In this document: positions 221 to 4,861 of the stretch, in pieces
How positions within the stretch are numbered: the stretch's first letter is position 1
Layout: each line of letters begins with the position of its first letter
Assembly (NCBI GenBank): GCA_964531375.1
Contig: CAZHDO010000001.1
Span: forward strand, 196,861 to 260,860
Reading direction: 5' to 3'
From: an uncultured Candidatus Saccharibacteria bacterium
GTDB lineage: Bacteria > Patescibacteriota > Minisyncoccia > Phycocordibacterales > UBA12445
DNA length: 64,000 nt
Made by a program: the position numbers and the translations under genes
The notes under the pieces: model-generated
What the model saw: only the letters and a program-made list of their open reading frames with translations
Told to the model about the DNA's origin: nothing
Databases searched by the model: none

Positions 221-304
221 GCCGCGGTGGCGGAATTGGTAGACGCAATAGACTCAAAATCTATCGATCGCAAGGTCATGAGAGTTCGAGTCTCTCCCGC
301 GGCA
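221..304 (+). tRNA. tRNA-Leu(CAA), type II with long variable arm
   Basis: Hand-folded. Acceptor stem GCCGCGG pairs with CCGCGGC, discriminator A. Three-bp D-stem with an 11-nt D-loop. Anticodon arm ATAGA/CTCAAAA/TCTAT gives anticodon CAA. Long variable arm. T-arm GAGAG/TTCGAGT/CTCTC. CCA is not encoded. Confidence 0.85.
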
Positions 305-310
305 CAAAAC

Positions 311-350
311 AACCACCTAAATGTGAAAACATTTAGGTGGTTTTGTTTTT
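311..350 (+). terminator. rho-independent terminator after tRNA-Leu
   Basis: 13-bp stem AACCACCTAAATG pairs with CATTTAGGTGGTT, followed by TTTGTTTTT. Confidence 0.6.
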
Positions 351-466
351 GTAGTCGCGGGAGAGACTCGAAAGACGGAAGCGGGCCCCTTGCTGAAAGC
401 AAGGGAGCTGAGTCAGGGTCGCGCAAAATTTGCTGAAGCAAATTTATGTGTGACCGAGTCTCTCTT
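351..466 (+). repeat. tRNA-trailer structured element, copy L (family also at 17309-17443 and 15817-15961)
   Basis: It starts GGGAGAGACTCG, the reverse complement of the tRNA-Leu T-arm 3' strand, and ends CCGAGTCTCTC, a direct copy of that strand. The core CGAAAGACGGAAGCGGGCCCC, the GAAA-loop hairpin CCTTGCT/AGCAAGG and a second hairpin AAATTTGC-TGAA-GCAAATTT are shared with the other copies. Confidence 0.5.
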
Positions 467-600
467 TTTATAGTATAATTTTTTATTCTGTATTGATATT
501 TCCTCCTAGAACTCTTACCCCCATTTGTGCTAATATATCCCAATGTCTCATTTGTGAGACTTAATGATGTTTTGGCACTTTTATCTTATTTTTGCTGTAA

Positions 601-2172
601 GTGTCAAACCATAAAAATAAAATGCTTTCACCAAATATTAATATAGTTTTAAAGGGTTTGGGGTCGTACAAAGAGGGTGGTATATACGCAAGTAATAATG
701 AACCGATGGTAAGTGTAAACAATCTTACTGGTAAGGTCGGTACTCTTTATGAAAAAATGCGTTATCTTGTTGATTACAAGGAGGAGCATTCTATTAGGAG
801 AAATGCAATTGAGCGTATTCTTAAAAGGAATATTCTGATGGAAGATAATTCTGAAATTGGTCTTTCTTTGTTACGCGAACTGGTTAGTAGTGGATATTTG
901 CCTGACAAAAGTGTACCTGAGAGTGTTGCGGGTAAGATTCAATTGATTGCAAATAAATATCTTATTTTAGGAATTGCTTGTGGTATTGAGAAAAAACGAG
1001 TAGTTAGTTTAATGGCTAGTGAGATAGAGAGATTTCTTTTTCCGCAACTTATAAATGATTTGGTTCTGGATTGGTTTTATTCGACAATCTCTGTTGGTAT
1101 TAATTATTCCGAAAAGATTCCTGTTGAAGAGCTTAATATTCAAACTTATATAGCATGTAGGCATAGTTTTTTACAGGATGATCGAGAGACTTTGCTTTAT
1201 GCAGTCTTGATAAAAAATCTTCCAGAATTACCCAAGATTATAGATGAAACTGAAATAAAAAATATTGCATTAAGGTTTTCAGAAATATTAACCGCTTCAG
1301 AAAAGGATATTAAGGATCCATTAGCCTGGAAAATATCTTCAAAACTTAAAAATTACTCTGTCTATTTTTCTGTTTTAAAGGAGATTGTTGAGAAATATGG
1401 ATTAGTTTCAGAGTCTTTGTTTAATGATAAAGCTCGACTCGCAGAAGAAATTAAAAAAATATTAGAAGATAAATATAAGAGGCATGGAGATATTATTAGT
1501 AAGAGTGGTACAAGAGCCATTGAGTATATTTTATTAACAAAAATTGGCCTCGCTTTTTTATTAGAACTTCCATACGAAAAAATATTTCTTGCGTCCGTTG
1601 ATTATTTCGCCCTTGGTGTGAATGTAATTTTTCATCCACTTTTGCTTTTTCTAATGGTGAAGACAATTAGACCACCATCATTAGGTAATACAAGCTTAAT
1701 TGTTAGCGGTATTAACTCTATTGTTGAAAACGAAGATATAAAAACAATACACATCAAATCTTCGAGTGATGGTATTTTTATGCAAATTGTATTTGGTTTG
1801 CTTTATTTTGCGTTGTGTACGATAAGTTTTGGTCTTATTTTTGGAATTCTTAAAACTCTTAATTTTAGTATAATAAGTATGTTTTTGTTCTTATTATTCT
1901 TGACGCTCGTAAGTTATTTTGGTTTTCGTATACGCCACAATGCCAGAAAGTGGATTATATATATTGAAGATGATCGAATTTTAACATTATTATGGAACTT
2001 TTTTACCTTTCCAATTATTAATGTGGGTAGGTGGTTAAGCAGAAAATTCTCATCAATAAATATCTTTGTTTTTGCATTAGATATTATTCTGGAGACCCCA
2101 TTTAAGCTTATTCTTAGTACATTTGATTCATTCATTTATTTCTTAAAAGAAAAAGGGGAAGATTCCTATTAA
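601..2172 (+). CDS. hypothetical protein: about 330-aa soluble helical N-terminal region plus a C-terminal polytopic membrane region
   Basis: 523-aa ORF. The C-terminal 180 aa contain several hydrophobic segments. No motif recognised. The start is GTG at 601 or ATG at 622. A candidate TAGTATAAT -10 lies at 471-479. Confidence 0.55.
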   Translation: MSNHKNKMLSPNINIVLKGLGSYKEGGIYASNNEPMVSVNNLTGKVGTLYEKMRYLVDYKEEHSIRRNAIERILKRNILMEDNSEIGLSLLRELVSSGYLPDKSVPESVAGKIQLIANKYLILGIACGIEKKRVVSLMASEIERFLFPQLINDLVLDWFYSTISVGINYSEKIPVEELNIQTYIACRHSFLQDDRETLLYAVLIKNLPELPKIIDETEIKNIALRFSEILTASEKDIKDPLAWKISSKLKNYSVYFSVLKEIVEKYGLVSESLFNDKARLAEEIKKILEDKYKRHGDIISKSGTRAIEYILLTKIGLAFLLELPYEKIFLASVDYFALGVNVIFHPLLLFLMVKTIRPPSLGNTSLIVSGINSIVENEDIKTIHIKSSSDGIFMQIVFGLLYFALCTISFGLIFGILKTLNFSIISMFLFLLFLTLVSYFGFRIRHNARKWIIYIEDDRILTLLWNFFTFPIINVGRWLSRKFSSINIFVFALDIILETPFKLILSTFDSFIYFLKEKGEDSY

Positions 2173-3331: not shown

Positions 3332-4861
3332 TTATTTTTTGTCTTTTTTTCTGGCGTTCTCATTTGTTCCTGTTGCCATTTTTATGCGCTTTATTGCTTC
3401 GGTCGTTTTTGCAAATTCAAGCCACTTGTAGCTTGGAGTACTATTTTCTCTTGTGATTATATCTACAATGTCTCCATTTTTAAGAACAGTGTCGAAGGAG
3501 ACAAATTTGTTATTAACTTTCGCTCCGAAAGCGTGATTTCCGATATCTGAATGAATAATATAAGCAAAATCTATTGGACTTGCACCTTCTGGCAGCTCTA
3601 TAACATCTCCCTTGGGTGTAAAGACGAAAATCTGATCTGTAAAAAAGTCCGTCTTTAAATTATCTAAGAAATTTTCCGATTCATCTAGGTTTTTTTGCCA
3701 CTCAATTAGTCTATTTATCCACCTGATTTTTTTGGTCAAAACACCTCCGCTTTTTGGTTTTCCTTGTTCGTCGTAGGCAATGTGTGAAGTGATACCAAAT
3801 TCAGCCTCTTCGTGCATTTTCTCGCTTCTAATCTGTATCTCAACCATACCGCCGTCGCCAGTGAATATGACTGTGTGAATACTTTGATATCCGTTTGGTT
3901 TTGGTACGGCAATATAATCTTTAAGTTTATCAGGAAGTGGTCTCCATGTGTTGTGAATAATTCCAAGCACCCTGTAACAATCTTCTGTACTTGGGACAAT
4001 TATTCGCAGGGCCGAAATATCATAAACCTTGTCTATGTCCATATTGGAACGCAGGAGCTTTTTGTACAGGCTGTATATATGTTTTACCCTGAAGTCAGTT
4101 TTGAATTTTGTTATACCAGCCTTAACGAGCCGTTTGCAGAGAACCCTATTAATTTTGGATAATTTATTTGTGAATTCTTTTGATTTTGATTGAACCAGTT
4201 TTTGTGTTTGTTTGTATTCGTCGGGATATAAAAAGGGGAAAGAGTTATCTTCGAGCTTTCCTTTCATTTGGCCCATTCCAAGACGATTCGCTATTGGCGC
4301 GTATATTTCTATTGTTTCAAGAGCGATCCTTTTTGCGTTTTCCGGCTTAACATCATGTAAATTTTTCAGAGTTTCAACATTATTTAATCTATCTGCAAGT
4401 TTAATTAATAAAACTCTGATATCTTTTGCCGTTGCAATAAAAAGCTTACGGAGACTTTCCGCGTGCCTTTCAAGTCCATGATATTTAATTTTTCCTAGTT
4501 TAGTGACCCCTTCTACCATGAAGAAAATATCTTCACTAAAGTTTTTTACAATATCTTCTTTTGTCGTTTTGGTGTCTTCGAGCGTGTCGTGAAGTAGTCC
4601 AGCTGCGATCGTTTCCGTATCTGCTCTTAGTTTGGCCAGATTTTTAGCTGTGCTGACAAGGTGTACTAAATATGGTTCGCCAGATAGTCTTTTGTGTTCA
4701 TGATGAGCTTCTTTGGCAAAATCGTAAGCTTTTTGAATTAATTTATTATCTGAATCGTTTGGGTGTGCCATCAAGCCTAAAATATCCTGAACATCTTTTG
4801 AGCAGTCATAACATATGTTTATATTGTTGGAAATTTTTTCTTCCATATGTGAATTATACAT
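3332..4861 (-). CDS. rel: (p)ppGpp synthetase/hydrolase Rel/SpoT homolog, truncated form (HD + synthetase + TGS only)
   Basis: HD motif HHEHKRLSGEPYLVHLV...LLHDTLEDT. A RelA/SpoT synthetase region. A TGS domain (FVFTPKGDVIELPEGASPIDFAYIIHSDIG). Only 509 aa, with no C-terminal ZFD/ACT region. Confidence 0.85.
   Translation of the reverse strand: MYNSHMEEKISNNINICYDCSKDVQDILGLMAHPNDSDNKLIQKAYDFAKEAHHEHKRLSGEPYLVHLVSTAKNLAKLRADTETIAAGLLHDTLEDTKTTKEDIVKNFSEDIFFMVEGVTKLGKIKYHGLERHAESLRKLFIATAKDIRVLLIKLADRLNNVETLKNLHDVKPENAKRIALETIEIYAPIANRLGMGQMKGKLEDNSFPFLYPDEYKQTQKLVQSKSKEFTNKLSKINRVLCKRLVKAGITKFKTDFRVKHIYSLYKKLLRSNMDIDKVYDISALRIIVPSTEDCYRVLGIIHNTWRPLPDKLKDYIAVPKPNGYQSIHTVIFTGDGGMVEIQIRSEKMHEEAEFGITSHIAYDEQGKPKSGGVLTKKIRWINRLIEWQKNLDESENFLDNLKTDFFTDQIFVFTPKGDVIELPEGASPIDFAYIIHSDIGNHAFGAKVNNKFVSFDTVLKNGDIVDIITRENSTPSYKWLEFAKTTEAIKRIKMATGTNENARKKDKK

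Follow-up and report, generated by a model that had tools for sequence, protein, structure and literature searches.

The window, by which we mean the whole 64-kb stretch of DNA analysed here, carries a tRNA-Leu(CAA) gene at 221..305 on the plus strand (ARAGORN; Rfam tRNA model, 59.7 bits), and this gene is followed by a structured unit that we call copy 1. The unit starts with a hairpin region (305..353, plus strand), which consists of an A-tract (305-310), a stem-loop with a 14-bp stem and a GAAA loop (311-342), and a U-tract (343-353) with an extra A at 353. Next comes A' (354..370, plus strand, gtcgcgggagagactcg), a 17-nt segment antisense to tRNA-Leu positions 56-72, which matches the tRNA-Leu at 16 of 18 positions and forms the 5' strand of an outer helix, P1. 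The segment that is copied, A, corresponds to tRNA-Leu positions 56-73 (window 287-304, cgagtctctcccgcggca). The conserved core (371..454, plus strand) is recovered by the MFE fold, alifold, covariation and the covariance-model match. On the same strand, it is composed of J1/2 (371-373, AAA), P2 (374-414; GAC/GUC, a GGA/GA loop, AGC/GCU, a purine bulge and an 8-bp hairpin with a GAAA loop), J2/3 (415-416, AG) and P3 (417-455), a variable hairpin with a conserved UA bulge and a GUGACC closure. The unit ends with the distal A, the 3' strand of P1 (455..466, plus strand), a truncated direct copy, cgagtctctc, followed by a U run. This distal A (455-464/466) reproduces the T-loop/T-stem strand of the tRNA-Leu only.

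Two further copies lie on the minus strand. Copy 2 follows a tRNA-Glu(CTC) gene (17444..17516, minus strand; tRNA positions 56-73 at 17461->17444) and starts with an AT-rich terminator-type hairpin (17396..17443, minus strand; terminator-like site 17428-17415). Its A'-core-A part (17290..17395, minus strand) was delimited by the covariance-model match and by direct-repeat comparison: A' is a 7-nt remnant, agaatcg (17395->17389), the core (17388->17308) has a P2 almost the same as in copy 1, and the distal A (17307->17290) repeats 18 nt of the tRNA-Glu 3' end exactly. Copy 3 has a hairpin at 15962..16009 (minus strand), which by alignment is homologous to that of copy 2, with no intact tRNA upstream; its A'-core-A part (15817..15961, minus strand, from the covariance-model match) is laid out as A' (15961->15945), a core with a diverged P2 and a long loop-E-like P3 (15944->15834), and distal A (15833->15817). 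Both A copies of copy 3 are tRNA-Glu-like in the T-arm part. Directly upstream of copy 3 there is no tRNA, and a 373-aa ORF (16109-17230) lies between copies 2 and 3; ARAGORN with introns allowed found no intron-containing tRNA upstream of the tRNA-Glu or of copy 3.

All three copies match a covariance model built from relatives, copy 1 at 359-466 (plus strand, 100.1 bits), copy 3 at 15822-15956 (minus strand, 94.7 bits) and copy 2 at 17296-17400 (minus strand, 83.8 bits), with E-values from 5e-29 to 6e-24, and the model finds nothing else in the 64-kb window. The exact core CGAAAGACGGARGCGGGCCCC occurs twice, at 369-389 on the plus strand and at 17370-17390 on the minus strand, with 0 occurrences expected in shuffles, while the core of copy 3 is the diverged variant CGAAAAGCGGAGGCAGGATCC. 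In alignments, hairpin and core lineages are mixed among the three copies. The preliminary description of this DNA had proposed three loci of one architecture, with P2 loops GAAA, GAAA and AAUA, compensatory changes in P2 and a variable P3, and all of this is confirmed at the places given there. Its statement that the elements sit behind tRNA 3' ends holds for copies 1 and 2, but they do not abut the tRNA, as a 43-49-nt hairpin intervenes, and copy 3 is tRNA-less. Likewise, the T-stem 3' strand is copied as described, but the copied segment is larger and covers tRNA positions 54/56-73.

From all loci, a common architecture emerges. The unit is about 170-200 bp long, lacks genes and lies directly 3' of tRNA and tmRNA genes. 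Reading from the tRNA 3' end, it consists of a terminator-type hairpin, A' (antisense to tRNA positions 54/56-73), a core made of two hairpins whose internal loops are purine-rich, and the distal A, a sense copy of positions 56-73. The copied segment thus comprises the 3' part of the T-loop, the 3' strand of the T-stem, the 3' strand of the acceptor stem and the discriminator. The hairpin of 43-49 nt that separates the tRNA from A' is GNRA-capped and flanked by an A-tract and a U-tract, a layout common to 46 loci, and on sequence criteria it would be a bidirectional intrinsic terminator; the window hairpin 311-342 is predicted to be terminator-like on both strands. Hairpin tips and whole hairpin subfamilies are kept across genomes and tRNA types, and therefore the tRNA trailer is element sequence and the hairpin belongs to the repeated unit. 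The spacing between tRNA and core is constant, 60-68 nt, in 33 loci, and about 27 of 42 loci conserve a single extra A close to the end of the helix. The architecture is shared by at least four other core types, and core and hairpin types are interchangeable between units.

The covariance model identified 80 further copies in 51 loci from at least 34 genomes of Patescibacteria (CPR), which together with the window gives a family of 83 copies. The three copies are thus not just a recent local duplication without matches elsewhere, the outcome that would have spoken against the preliminary description. A same-strand tRNA end lies 43-70 nt upstream in 47 of the 83 copies, while eight follow another copy in tandem and four follow a tmRNA. 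The hosts represent 16 tRNA isoacceptor families in addition to tmRNA.

The fold is strongly supported by covariation. In the covariance-model alignment, standard pairs occupy 92.4% of the pair cells, compared with 67.3% in shuffles, and cells with double changes number 551 against 158. Double changes are found at 27 of the 28 pairs, and the covariation score is 0.62, compared with 0.19 for shuffles and 0.05-0.12 for slid partners. The compensatory changes therefore withstand shuffled and slid controls and go beyond relatedness, so that the idea of a family with a conserved fold, first drawn from three copies, is borne out by 83. In P2 and P3, G-U plus U-G exceeds A-C plus C-A five to one (40 vs 8), and hence the tRNA-sense strand is the folded strand.

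No named RNA family accounts for the element, in agreement with the preliminary description. At the gathering threshold, Rfam detects only tRNA in the window, no Rfam 15 match with E<=10 covers the copies in window 15700-17800, and 18 related loci contain only tRNA, tmRNA and one unrelated LOOT RNA. The families in Rfam 15 include hammerhead, twister, twister-sister, pistol, hatchet, HEARO, tmRNA, Y RNA and group I/II introns. Readings by eye as a hammerhead, a k-turn or a group I intron failed: CUGAGUC falls inside P2 and not at the junction, the bulge of the GGA/GA loop is 1 nt and not 3, and omega-G and P7 are absent. The pairing of the 5' and 3' ends also brought 5S rRNA, SRP, tmRNA and Y RNA into consideration, but sequence and Rfam exclude them. 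A literature search found no description of a tRNA-tail element; the element is undescribed in the sources searched, and none of the described RNA families or mobile elements matches it.

The outer helix P1 tracks the host tRNA, as had been proposed from the window copies. On average 13.7 of 16 positions of A' agree with its own tRNA but only 8.7 of 16 with other tRNAs, and the observed match is reached in 0 of 10,000 permutations. A nearest-neighbour comparison of the cores, which is noisy and based on few aligned columns, gives no grouping by tRNA type. In ten loci, including copy 2 of the window, the unit lies between exact 18/18-nt repeats of the tRNA end. Elsewhere the length of the direct repeat varies, from 10 to 18 nt, with 36 nt in L118 and about 45 nt in L146, and its inner end is fixed at C56 while the outer end is variable. 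This looks more like homology-driven duplication than like a staggered cut or an att core.

The first 12 bp of P1 correspond to the cognate acceptor stem stacked on the T-stem sequence. It can therefore be asked if the unit is a tRNA mimic, i.e. a processing signal of the t-element or mascRNA type, or a decoy for enzymes that recognise the acceptor/T-arm minihelix. However, P1 has no T-loop, it continues for five more pairs into the junction and runs outward beyond the discriminator into the trailer, and in locus L062 the encoded CCA is paired with UGG. Since P1 passes the acceptor end and pairs the CCA, there is no tRNA-like free 3' end. Many copies also have a truncated A or A'. A mimic is thus hardly likely at all, and the T-arm-invading decoy suggested earlier is the least supported of the three explanations in the preliminary description. 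The plant mitochondrial t-elements and mascRNA do share with the unit a helix of acceptor/T-stem sequence that adjoins another transcript, but they differ in that the unit has neither T-loop nor free 3' end and in that its helix is copied from a specific neighbouring tRNA. We do not count it among tRNA-like structures or t-elements.

A' has two potential partners. In the predicted three-way junction it pairs with the distal A, but it can also pair with the tRNA's own 3' end, as the tRNA end (287-304), the hairpin and A' (354-370) form a single palindrome with arms of about 40 bp and its centre at about 325-328. The corresponding long hairpin (-61 kcal/mol) is the predicted MFE structure of a read-through RNA, in which the tRNA would be unfolded. 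The trailer ncRNA that the preliminary description offered as its second explanation may yet apply, but a strong predicted terminator precedes the element and read-through would come at the expense of the tRNA. A -10-like box is found in only 6 of 42 loci, which rules out a universal promoter. In one hairpin subfamily, this box is accompanied by a conserved extra A at the predicted start, and neither occurs in the mirrored arm.

These observations bear on another reading, in which the units form a family of host RNA genes or are 3' modules of tRNA operons. Here, A'-core-A would be a stable small RNA that uses its purine-rich loops to bind a conserved protein. It would serve the cell, for instance in RNA quality control, as a protein sponge, or behind tRNA terminators as an insulator or fail-safe. 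It would be expressed from the right arm of the hairpin or by read-through and be maintained by gene conversion, not by transposition. Across Saccharibacteria, Paceibacteria and Kaiserbacteria, the P2 and P3 helices are 95-99% paired and their unpaired purines invariant, and this strong purifying selection at phylum-level distances could equally well mean a host function. The G-U bias that marks the sense strand, the RNA-type motifs (GNRA loops, a tandem G.A loop and loop-E-like AGUA/UAA), the promoter-like subfamily and the large share of terminal tRNA genes that carry some version of the unit also argue for such an RNA. On the other hand, no promoter is recognisable in the window copies, the tRNA would be misfolded in a read-through transcript, several unrelated cores fill the same slot, and nothing accounts for why such an RNA must copy the end of the neighbouring tRNA. 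Most contexts of an identical tRNA also lack the unit: an identical 23-nt tRNA-Leu end occurs in 100 metagenome loci, and the model matches directly downstream in only three. Finally, many copies are decayed or truncated, and arrays differ between close relatives. We therefore consider a host RNA somewhat unlikely. Regulation of the downstream gene, as by a riboswitch or leader, was rejected, as the ORFs after copies 1 and 2 are unrelated and the neighbours vary across loci.

The presence of the unit varies between genomes. Arrays with decayed distal units are found in L001, L002, L032, L054, L060 and L016. In a single pair of loci, an orthologous tRNA-Arg site is empty in L095 and filled in L060, and after the tRNA-Val gene of the same pair L095 has one unit and L060 two. 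Mobility is thus suggested by one orthologous pair, the arrays and facultative presence across distant genomes. The metagenome scan with the tRNA-Leu end returned no close relative of the window organism, and we found no orthologous empty site for copy 1: homologs of ORF 622-2172 (61% identity) lack synteny, and other contigs encoding the identical protein are from the same strain, being 100% identical over 3.3 kb.

Our search for a linked enzyme was negative. The unit itself lacks an ORF, no protein gene recurs within 8 kb, and in an all-against-all clustering of 823 ORFs from 52 loci no protein family is present in more than seven loci. Pfam detects only ParB and RmuC among the ORFs neighbouring the window copies, with no integrase or recombinase, and no gene for a reverse transcriptase or recombinase (retron, group II intron or IS110) adjoins any copy. 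Neither an excised or circular form nor an autonomous relative nor a candidate enzyme was found. No family member is present in 2.9 million viral contigs; a phage origin was rejected, since the single pattern match in IMG/VR is a chance one without a covariance-model match.

One might still see in the units the scars of larger integrative elements, such that the hairpin side and the A'-core-A side are the ends of prophages or islands whose interior was lost. Direct repeats of the tRNA end and a tmRNA host are the classical signature of integrase insertion, and the 373-aa ORF of the window lies between two units that both have tRNA-Glu-like copies. This is nevertheless very improbable, as the 60-68-nt spacing between tRNA and core in 33 loci is not expected from random internal deletions, no integrase or recurrent gene is found beside or between units, the viral contigs contain no member, and covariation of the RNA type is not expected of integrase arm sites.

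We tentatively favour, at somewhat below even confidence, the reading as an insertion or repeat element that is non-autonomous, site-specific and directed at tRNA 3' ends. Of the three explanations in the preliminary description, the miniature integrative or MITE-like element with its attachment site at the tRNA 3' end fits best because of the direct repeats, the tandem accretion, the empty and filled site, the tmRNA host and the absence of coding capacity. The unit resembles an integrative element in that the 3' segment of the tRNA is repeated at both boundaries and the proximal tRNA is intact. The element would take up the stretch of tRNA-like genes that runs from the T-loop to the 3' end, and leave an intact tRNA and a terminator on the proximal side, so that the duplicate of the tRNA end comes to lie distal to it, as with integrative elements at att sites. 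New units would accrete beside the tRNA while the older ones decay downstream.

In the favoured insertion element, the target address would be held in P1 (A'/A). An unproven extra copying step is needed for the matching of P1, because a simple integrase would give the new tRNA the wrong acceptor strand. We infer that P1 is re-copied from the local tRNA and so stays matched to it, through homogenisation across the palindrome arms and the direct repeats. Selection would act on the conserved fold of the sense strand, which most likely folds as RNA, although folded single-stranded DNA may also be considered. Such an RNA could be made from a promoter in the right arm of the hairpin, in some subfamilies, or by rare read-through, and any enzyme that moves the unit would act in trans.

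Several known systems share features with the unit. Prophages, islands and ICEs that integrate into tRNA and tmRNA genes also insert at the 3' part and leave the tRNA intact, have a duplicate from the T-loop to the 3' end at the far boundary and form tandem insertions beside the tRNA; a T-loop sublocation class of such tyrosine-integrase elements was reportedly described by Williams in 2002. However, the unit is only about 170-200 bp and has no integrase or any other gene, it adds an inverted copy of the target and a conserved folded core, and a single family is found on at least 16 tRNA species with copies matching each. The complete T-arm that a classical T-loop tyrosine-integrase core site requires is also absent from its distal junction. 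With MITEs and REP/BIME repeats the unit shares that it is short, non-coding, multi-copy, bounded by inverted repeats, non-autonomous and often near terminators. Still, its terminal inverted repeats are not constant but have the sequence of the upstream tRNA, its position is strictly fixed to one gene class and no parent transposon is known. We therefore do not classify it as a MITE, since the inverted repeats differ by host tRNA and the direct repeat is not of fixed length.

The CTX-phi attP(+) hairpin used by XerCD and the integron attC sites offer another parallel. In these, as in the unit, inverted copies with about 90 nt between them fold into a mimic of the target duplex, structure is kept over sequence, extrahelical bases are present and tandem arrays exist. 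The unit could accordingly be a folded single-stranded DNA recombination site, in which the A'/A duplex mimics the end of the tRNA gene, a host tyrosine recombinase reads the core arms and the extrahelical A, and one strand exchange followed by replication completes the integration. The inverted target copies (~85-110 nt apart), the single extra A conserved close to the end of the helix, arms that keep structure more than sequence, the tandem arrays and the GCGAAGC mini-hairpins that recur at P3 tips agree with this, and a strand bias that tolerates G.T fits DNA equally. But the unit targets a tRNA end instead of dif or attI and folds as a three-way junction whose internal loops resemble RNA tertiary motifs. 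There is no attached phage genome or cassette ORF, and we see no sign of a single-stranded stage, nor of a replicon or packaging helper; the 2.9 million viral contigs again give 0 matches. The attC boxes R''/L''...L'/R' (RYYYAAC ... GTTRRRY) are absent from the element sequences, R' and R'' included, and no dif-like half-sites were seen. A single-stranded DNA site is thus quite unlikely.

A likeness that is purely functional, and conjectural, exists to the EBS/IBS pairings of group II introns and to the IS110 bridge RNA, which also combine a conserved RNA scaffold with a variable, target-complementary segment. The unit differs from these by having no intron domains, reverse transcriptase or IS110 recombinase, and its two 'guide' segments pair with each other. 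One extension of the insertion element, which we regard as unlikely, is that the three-way-junction RNA or folded DNA serves as a programmable address, so that a chromosomally encoded CPR enzyme reads the core, inserts via the A'/A helix and re-templates this helix. If true, this would be base-pairing-guided, self-retargeting integration at any tRNA-like 3' end, a kind of natural system not yet described.

Patescibacteria genomes are tiny and have little spare DNA. Despite this small size, many of their terminal tRNA genes, and tmRNA, bear the unit, in some cases as arrays. Should the unit prove to be a mobile element, it would be among the smallest site-specific ones known, with an address copied from its target, and it would imply that an uncultured phylum has an unknown, possibly programmable activity for recombination or copying. 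As a host RNA, it would be widespread and strongly conserved, linked to tRNA expression and of unknown function.

The preliminary description had missed the terminator hairpin and the palindrome, as well as the arrays, the other core types and the family's restriction to Patescibacteria. Palindromes with 40-bp arms and duplicated tRNA ends can mislead tRNA annotation, callers of att sites and islands, and the assembly of CPR genomes, and the covariance model built here provides a marker for these units in CPR genomes.

Copy 1 of the element lies on the plus strand behind its host gene, tRNA-Leu(CAA) (221-304/305). An A-tract directly follows the tRNA, and next come a hairpin (311-342), with a stem of 14 bp and a GAAA loop, and a U-tract. 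The antisense copy of the tRNA end, A' (gtcgcgggagagactcg, 354-370), is the reverse complement of tRNA-Leu positions 56-72. It is separated by AAA from the long hairpin P2 (374-414), which AG joins to hairpin P3 (417-455). The distal sense copy A (cgagtctctc, 455-464) repeats the T-loop/T-stem strand of the tRNA directly, and a U run comes after it. Copy 2, on the minus strand behind tRNA-Glu(CTC) (17444-17516), follows the same plan, with the antisense copy shortened to 7 nt and the direct copy present as an exact 18-nt repeat of the tRNA-Glu end (17307->17290). Copy 3 (15961->15817, minus strand) also has this plan, with both A copies long and without an upstream tRNA. Copy 2 has its core in common with copy 1, whose hairpin differs, and its hairpin in common with copy 3, whose core differs. 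The exact core motif is expected to match zero times by chance, and on the tRNA-sense strand all three copies adopt one fold, a three-way junction of P2, P3 and P1, the helix of A' and A (z-scores -6.3, -3.5 and -6.3), more stably than on the opposite strand. The core motif and the shared fold therefore confirm the preliminary description of three loci with a common architecture, with corrections such as the hairpin that lies between tRNA and A'.

A degenerate core pattern searched against one-genome-per-species contigs matched 95 stretches, and about 55 of them contain the full architecture. These are all labelled Patescibacteria (Yonath-, Kaiser- and Paceibacteria, Saccharibacteria and Minisyncoccia) or unclassified 'bacterium' MAGs; the remaining matches are chance or coding matches from other phyla. 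The covariance model R1 finds exactly the three copies in the window and 80 copies in 51 other loci; the three copies are not just a recent local duplication. Rfam has no matching family, in agreement with the first impression that this is not a named RNA, no description was found in the literature searched, and the viral contigs of IMG/VR contain no members. The element is a real, widespread family confined to Patescibacteria and undescribed in the sources searched.

RNAalifold on the 34-member alignment A2 gives 28 pairs, 22 of them with compensatory changes. Covariation statistics were calculated on an 80-sequence alignment, with shuffles and partners slid by 1-3 columns as controls. Standard pairs fill 92.4% of the cells against 67.3% in shuffles, both-side changes are found in 551 cells against 158, and the covariation score is 0.62 against 0.05-0.12 with slid partners. 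Pairing reaches 95-99% in P2 and P3 and 83% in P1. The compensatory changes seen earlier thus do mark a conserved folded unit. In P2 and P3, G-U and U-G together number 40, A-C and C-A together only 8, and the folded strand is therefore the tRNA-sense strand. The conserved unpaired positions are purines (GAAAG, GGA/GA, GGG, GG), and many P3 stems contain an AGUA/UAA loop-E-like loop or a UA bulge. We infer that the folded species is RNA. P3 tips of many loci (e.g. L006, L018, L032 and L046 among the relatives) and decayed units share the heptamer GCGAAGC, which is known to form an unusually stable mini-hairpin.

The position of the element is strict. The distance from the tRNA 3' end to the core CGAAA is 60-68 nt in 33 loci, and 47 of the 83 model matches lie 43-70 nt downstream of a tRNA end on the same strand. 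Another 8 lie directly behind another copy, 6 are at a locus edge and 22 have none of these; upstream of 4 of the 22 is a tmRNA gene, and some others keep the hairpin and follow an apparent decayed tRNA end. Host tRNAs belong to 16 isoacceptor families, and tRNAs without a unit are mostly internal in tRNA clusters. If the elements were scars of larger islands, a spacing this constant would be hard to explain, and so would the missing integrase; we regard this origin as very improbable.

Of 16 positions, A' has 13.7 in common with its own tRNA and 8.7 with tRNAs of other loci. At positions 61-71 only, the values are 8.9 and 4.5 of 11, and none of 10,000 permutations reaches the former. P1 does therefore track the neighbouring tRNA, as proposed. 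The core does not group by tRNA type in a noisy similarity analysis. A role as tRNA mimic or decoy is hardly credible; the element has neither a T-loop nor a free 3' end.

Trailer, hairpin and U-tract are mirrored throughout, so that tRNA positions 56-73 and the left arm pair with the right arm and A' as one hairpin, of -45 to -70 kcal/mol at nearly every locus. Similar hairpin tips (AAUGCG-NNA-GCAUU, loops mostly GNRA or GNNA), and entire hairpin subfamilies, are found in different genomes and behind different tRNA types. What directly follows the tRNA 3' end is therefore part of the unit and not a native trailer. The symmetry is broken by an extra A in the A' strand opposite 73/72 or 72/71 (about 27 of 42 loci) and, in one hairpin subfamily (6 of 42 loci), by a TATAAT-like box 6-7 nt upstream of the extra A; the mirrored left arm has no such box in the 42 loci. 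In the predicted read-through transcript from the tRNA through the element, the long hairpin forms and the tRNA is unfolded (MFE -126 kcal/mol). The unit hairpin scores as a predicted bidirectional terminator.

Units also form tandem arrays with the repeat A - hairpin - A' - core (L001, L002, L003, L032, L054, L060 and L016), in which distal units are more decayed than proximal ones. By analogy with CTX-phi attP or attC, a folded single-stranded DNA site would account for these arrays, the inverted target copies and the extrahelical A; it has no direct support, and we consider it quite improbable.

Decay is of two opposite classes. Either the distal A is exact (18/18) and A' is decayed (L074, L040, L024, L054-Arg and window copy 2), or A' is exact and the distal A is decayed (L058, L066, L065 and window copy 1). 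This suggests that palindrome arms and direct repeats are homogenised separately, with the tRNA as master copy. Both A copies have their inner end fixed in the T-loop, at the palindromic TCGA, and a variable outer end; the direct repeat extends over 36 nt in L118 and, in L146, where it takes in the hairpin, over about 45 nt. In L067 (4965-5078, minus strand), the distal copy of the tRNA-Tyr end is interrupted by a ~110-nt insertion (cgaatccttcc / insert / ttccctgcgcat), and ttcc is repeated; in this locus a 2.2-kb segment with a ~230-aa ORF, a pseudo-tRNA, hairpin and element is duplicated in tandem.

One empty and filled site is seen in the orthologous loci L095 and L060. In L095 only a 22-nt spacer separates tRNA-Arg from tRNA-Val; in L060 the same spacer comes only after a hairpin, a shortened A', a degenerate core and what is left of A. 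Behind tRNA-Val there is one unit in L095 and two in L060. The two tRNA-Arg(TCT) genes (L060 6197-6268, L095 7202-7273) are about 75% identical with compensating acceptor-stem differences, and the adjoining tRNA-Val is identical; from this comparison, the tRNA that adjoins the inserted unit may be a replacement. No direct empty site was found for the window copies, because the other contigs with copy 1 are the same strain and at 61% protein identity synteny is lost. Presence is facultative: an identical 23-nt tRNA-Leu end has a model match directly downstream in 3 of the first 100 metagenome loci among the matches listed.

Behind other tRNAs, an unchanged arrangement of hairpin, A' and A encloses at least four further core types in this slot. 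Types 1b, 2, 3 and 4 are found on the minus strand at L054 5700-5820, L001 560-860 and L008 7580-7770, and on the plus strand at L066 7615-7760, L026 5768-5900, L058 1301-1430, L014 680-820 and L018 7513-7650. The architecture is therefore more general than the window element family. A host small-RNA or terminator module, with copies kept alike through gene conversion, would explain the deep conservation but leaves decay, arrays and alternative cores unaccounted for, as well as why a tRNA end has to be copied; it appears rather unlikely.

We tentatively favour, as the best-supported reading yet short of an even chance, an insertion or repeat element that is non-autonomous and specific to the 3' ends of tRNA and tmRNA genes, with its own terminator and an outer helix copied from the host tRNA. 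A unit inserting at such an end would bring its terminator, P1 would be re-templated from the local tRNA, and a trans-acting enzyme would serve the gene-less unit; we infer the movement, the re-templating and the enzyme alike. Of the MITE-like or integrative element suggested earlier, the tRNA 3' end as insertion site fits, but the constant terminal repeats and fixed short duplication of MITEs and an integrase of its own are lacking. The closest systems are tRNA-targeting integrative elements, which share the target, the intact tRNA, the duplicated 3' end and tandem accretion but are defined by that integrase gene. Folded recombination sites and guide-bearing mobile RNAs are alike by analogy only. 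We would place the units among small non-coding site-specific elements; a categorically new integration system addressed by base pairing is improbable.

There is no ORF inside the unit, no recurrent protein family within 8 kb of it in 52 loci, and no Pfam domain except ParB and RmuC in ORFs flanking the window copies. In copy 1, the conserved GUGACC closure and the 3' end are overlapped by a promoter-like GTGACC-18-TATAAT (10/12 matches; 450-479, plus strand) facing the ORF at 601/622-2172, so that the element may supply the -35 of this next gene. Its product (622-2172, plus strand) is a 516-aa multi-pass membrane protein of an uncharacterised family without a Pfam domain. At E<=1e-10 the protein has 296 homologs, of which all source-named ones are Patescibacteria. 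Between copies 2 and 3, a 373-aa ORF (16109-17230, minus strand) with a C-terminal hydrophobic helix and no Pfam match could be cargo trapped between two units with tRNA-Glu-like end copies. An RmuC-family gene (18220-19263, plus strand) adjoins tRNA-Glu. RmuC, a protein of DNA recombination, is said to keep inversions at short inverted repeats in check; its location here is probably coincidental, though notable next to palindromes with 40-bp arms.

Directly upstream of tRNA-Glu (17530-17800, minus strand), a tRNA-like 5' part (acgacccggttaggacagtgcctc...) is separated by ~210 nt from a 3' part that resembles a T-arm (gcagagttcgagtttgtgttg), and two c(t)cTGTAAg(a)gg stem-loops lie in between. 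The two parts may belong to a tRNA gene that has an intron or has decayed; ARAGORN with introns allowed and Rfam call no tRNA there. In the Saccharibacteria contig L003, which also has two tandem element copies, a LOOT RNA (RF03000, 64.5 bits) is found at 3852-3985 on the plus strand. One short GC-rich palindrome (cttggggccaag / gttggggcccaag) is present twice, upstream of copy 3 (16040-16052) and in the tRNA-like region (17636-17650).
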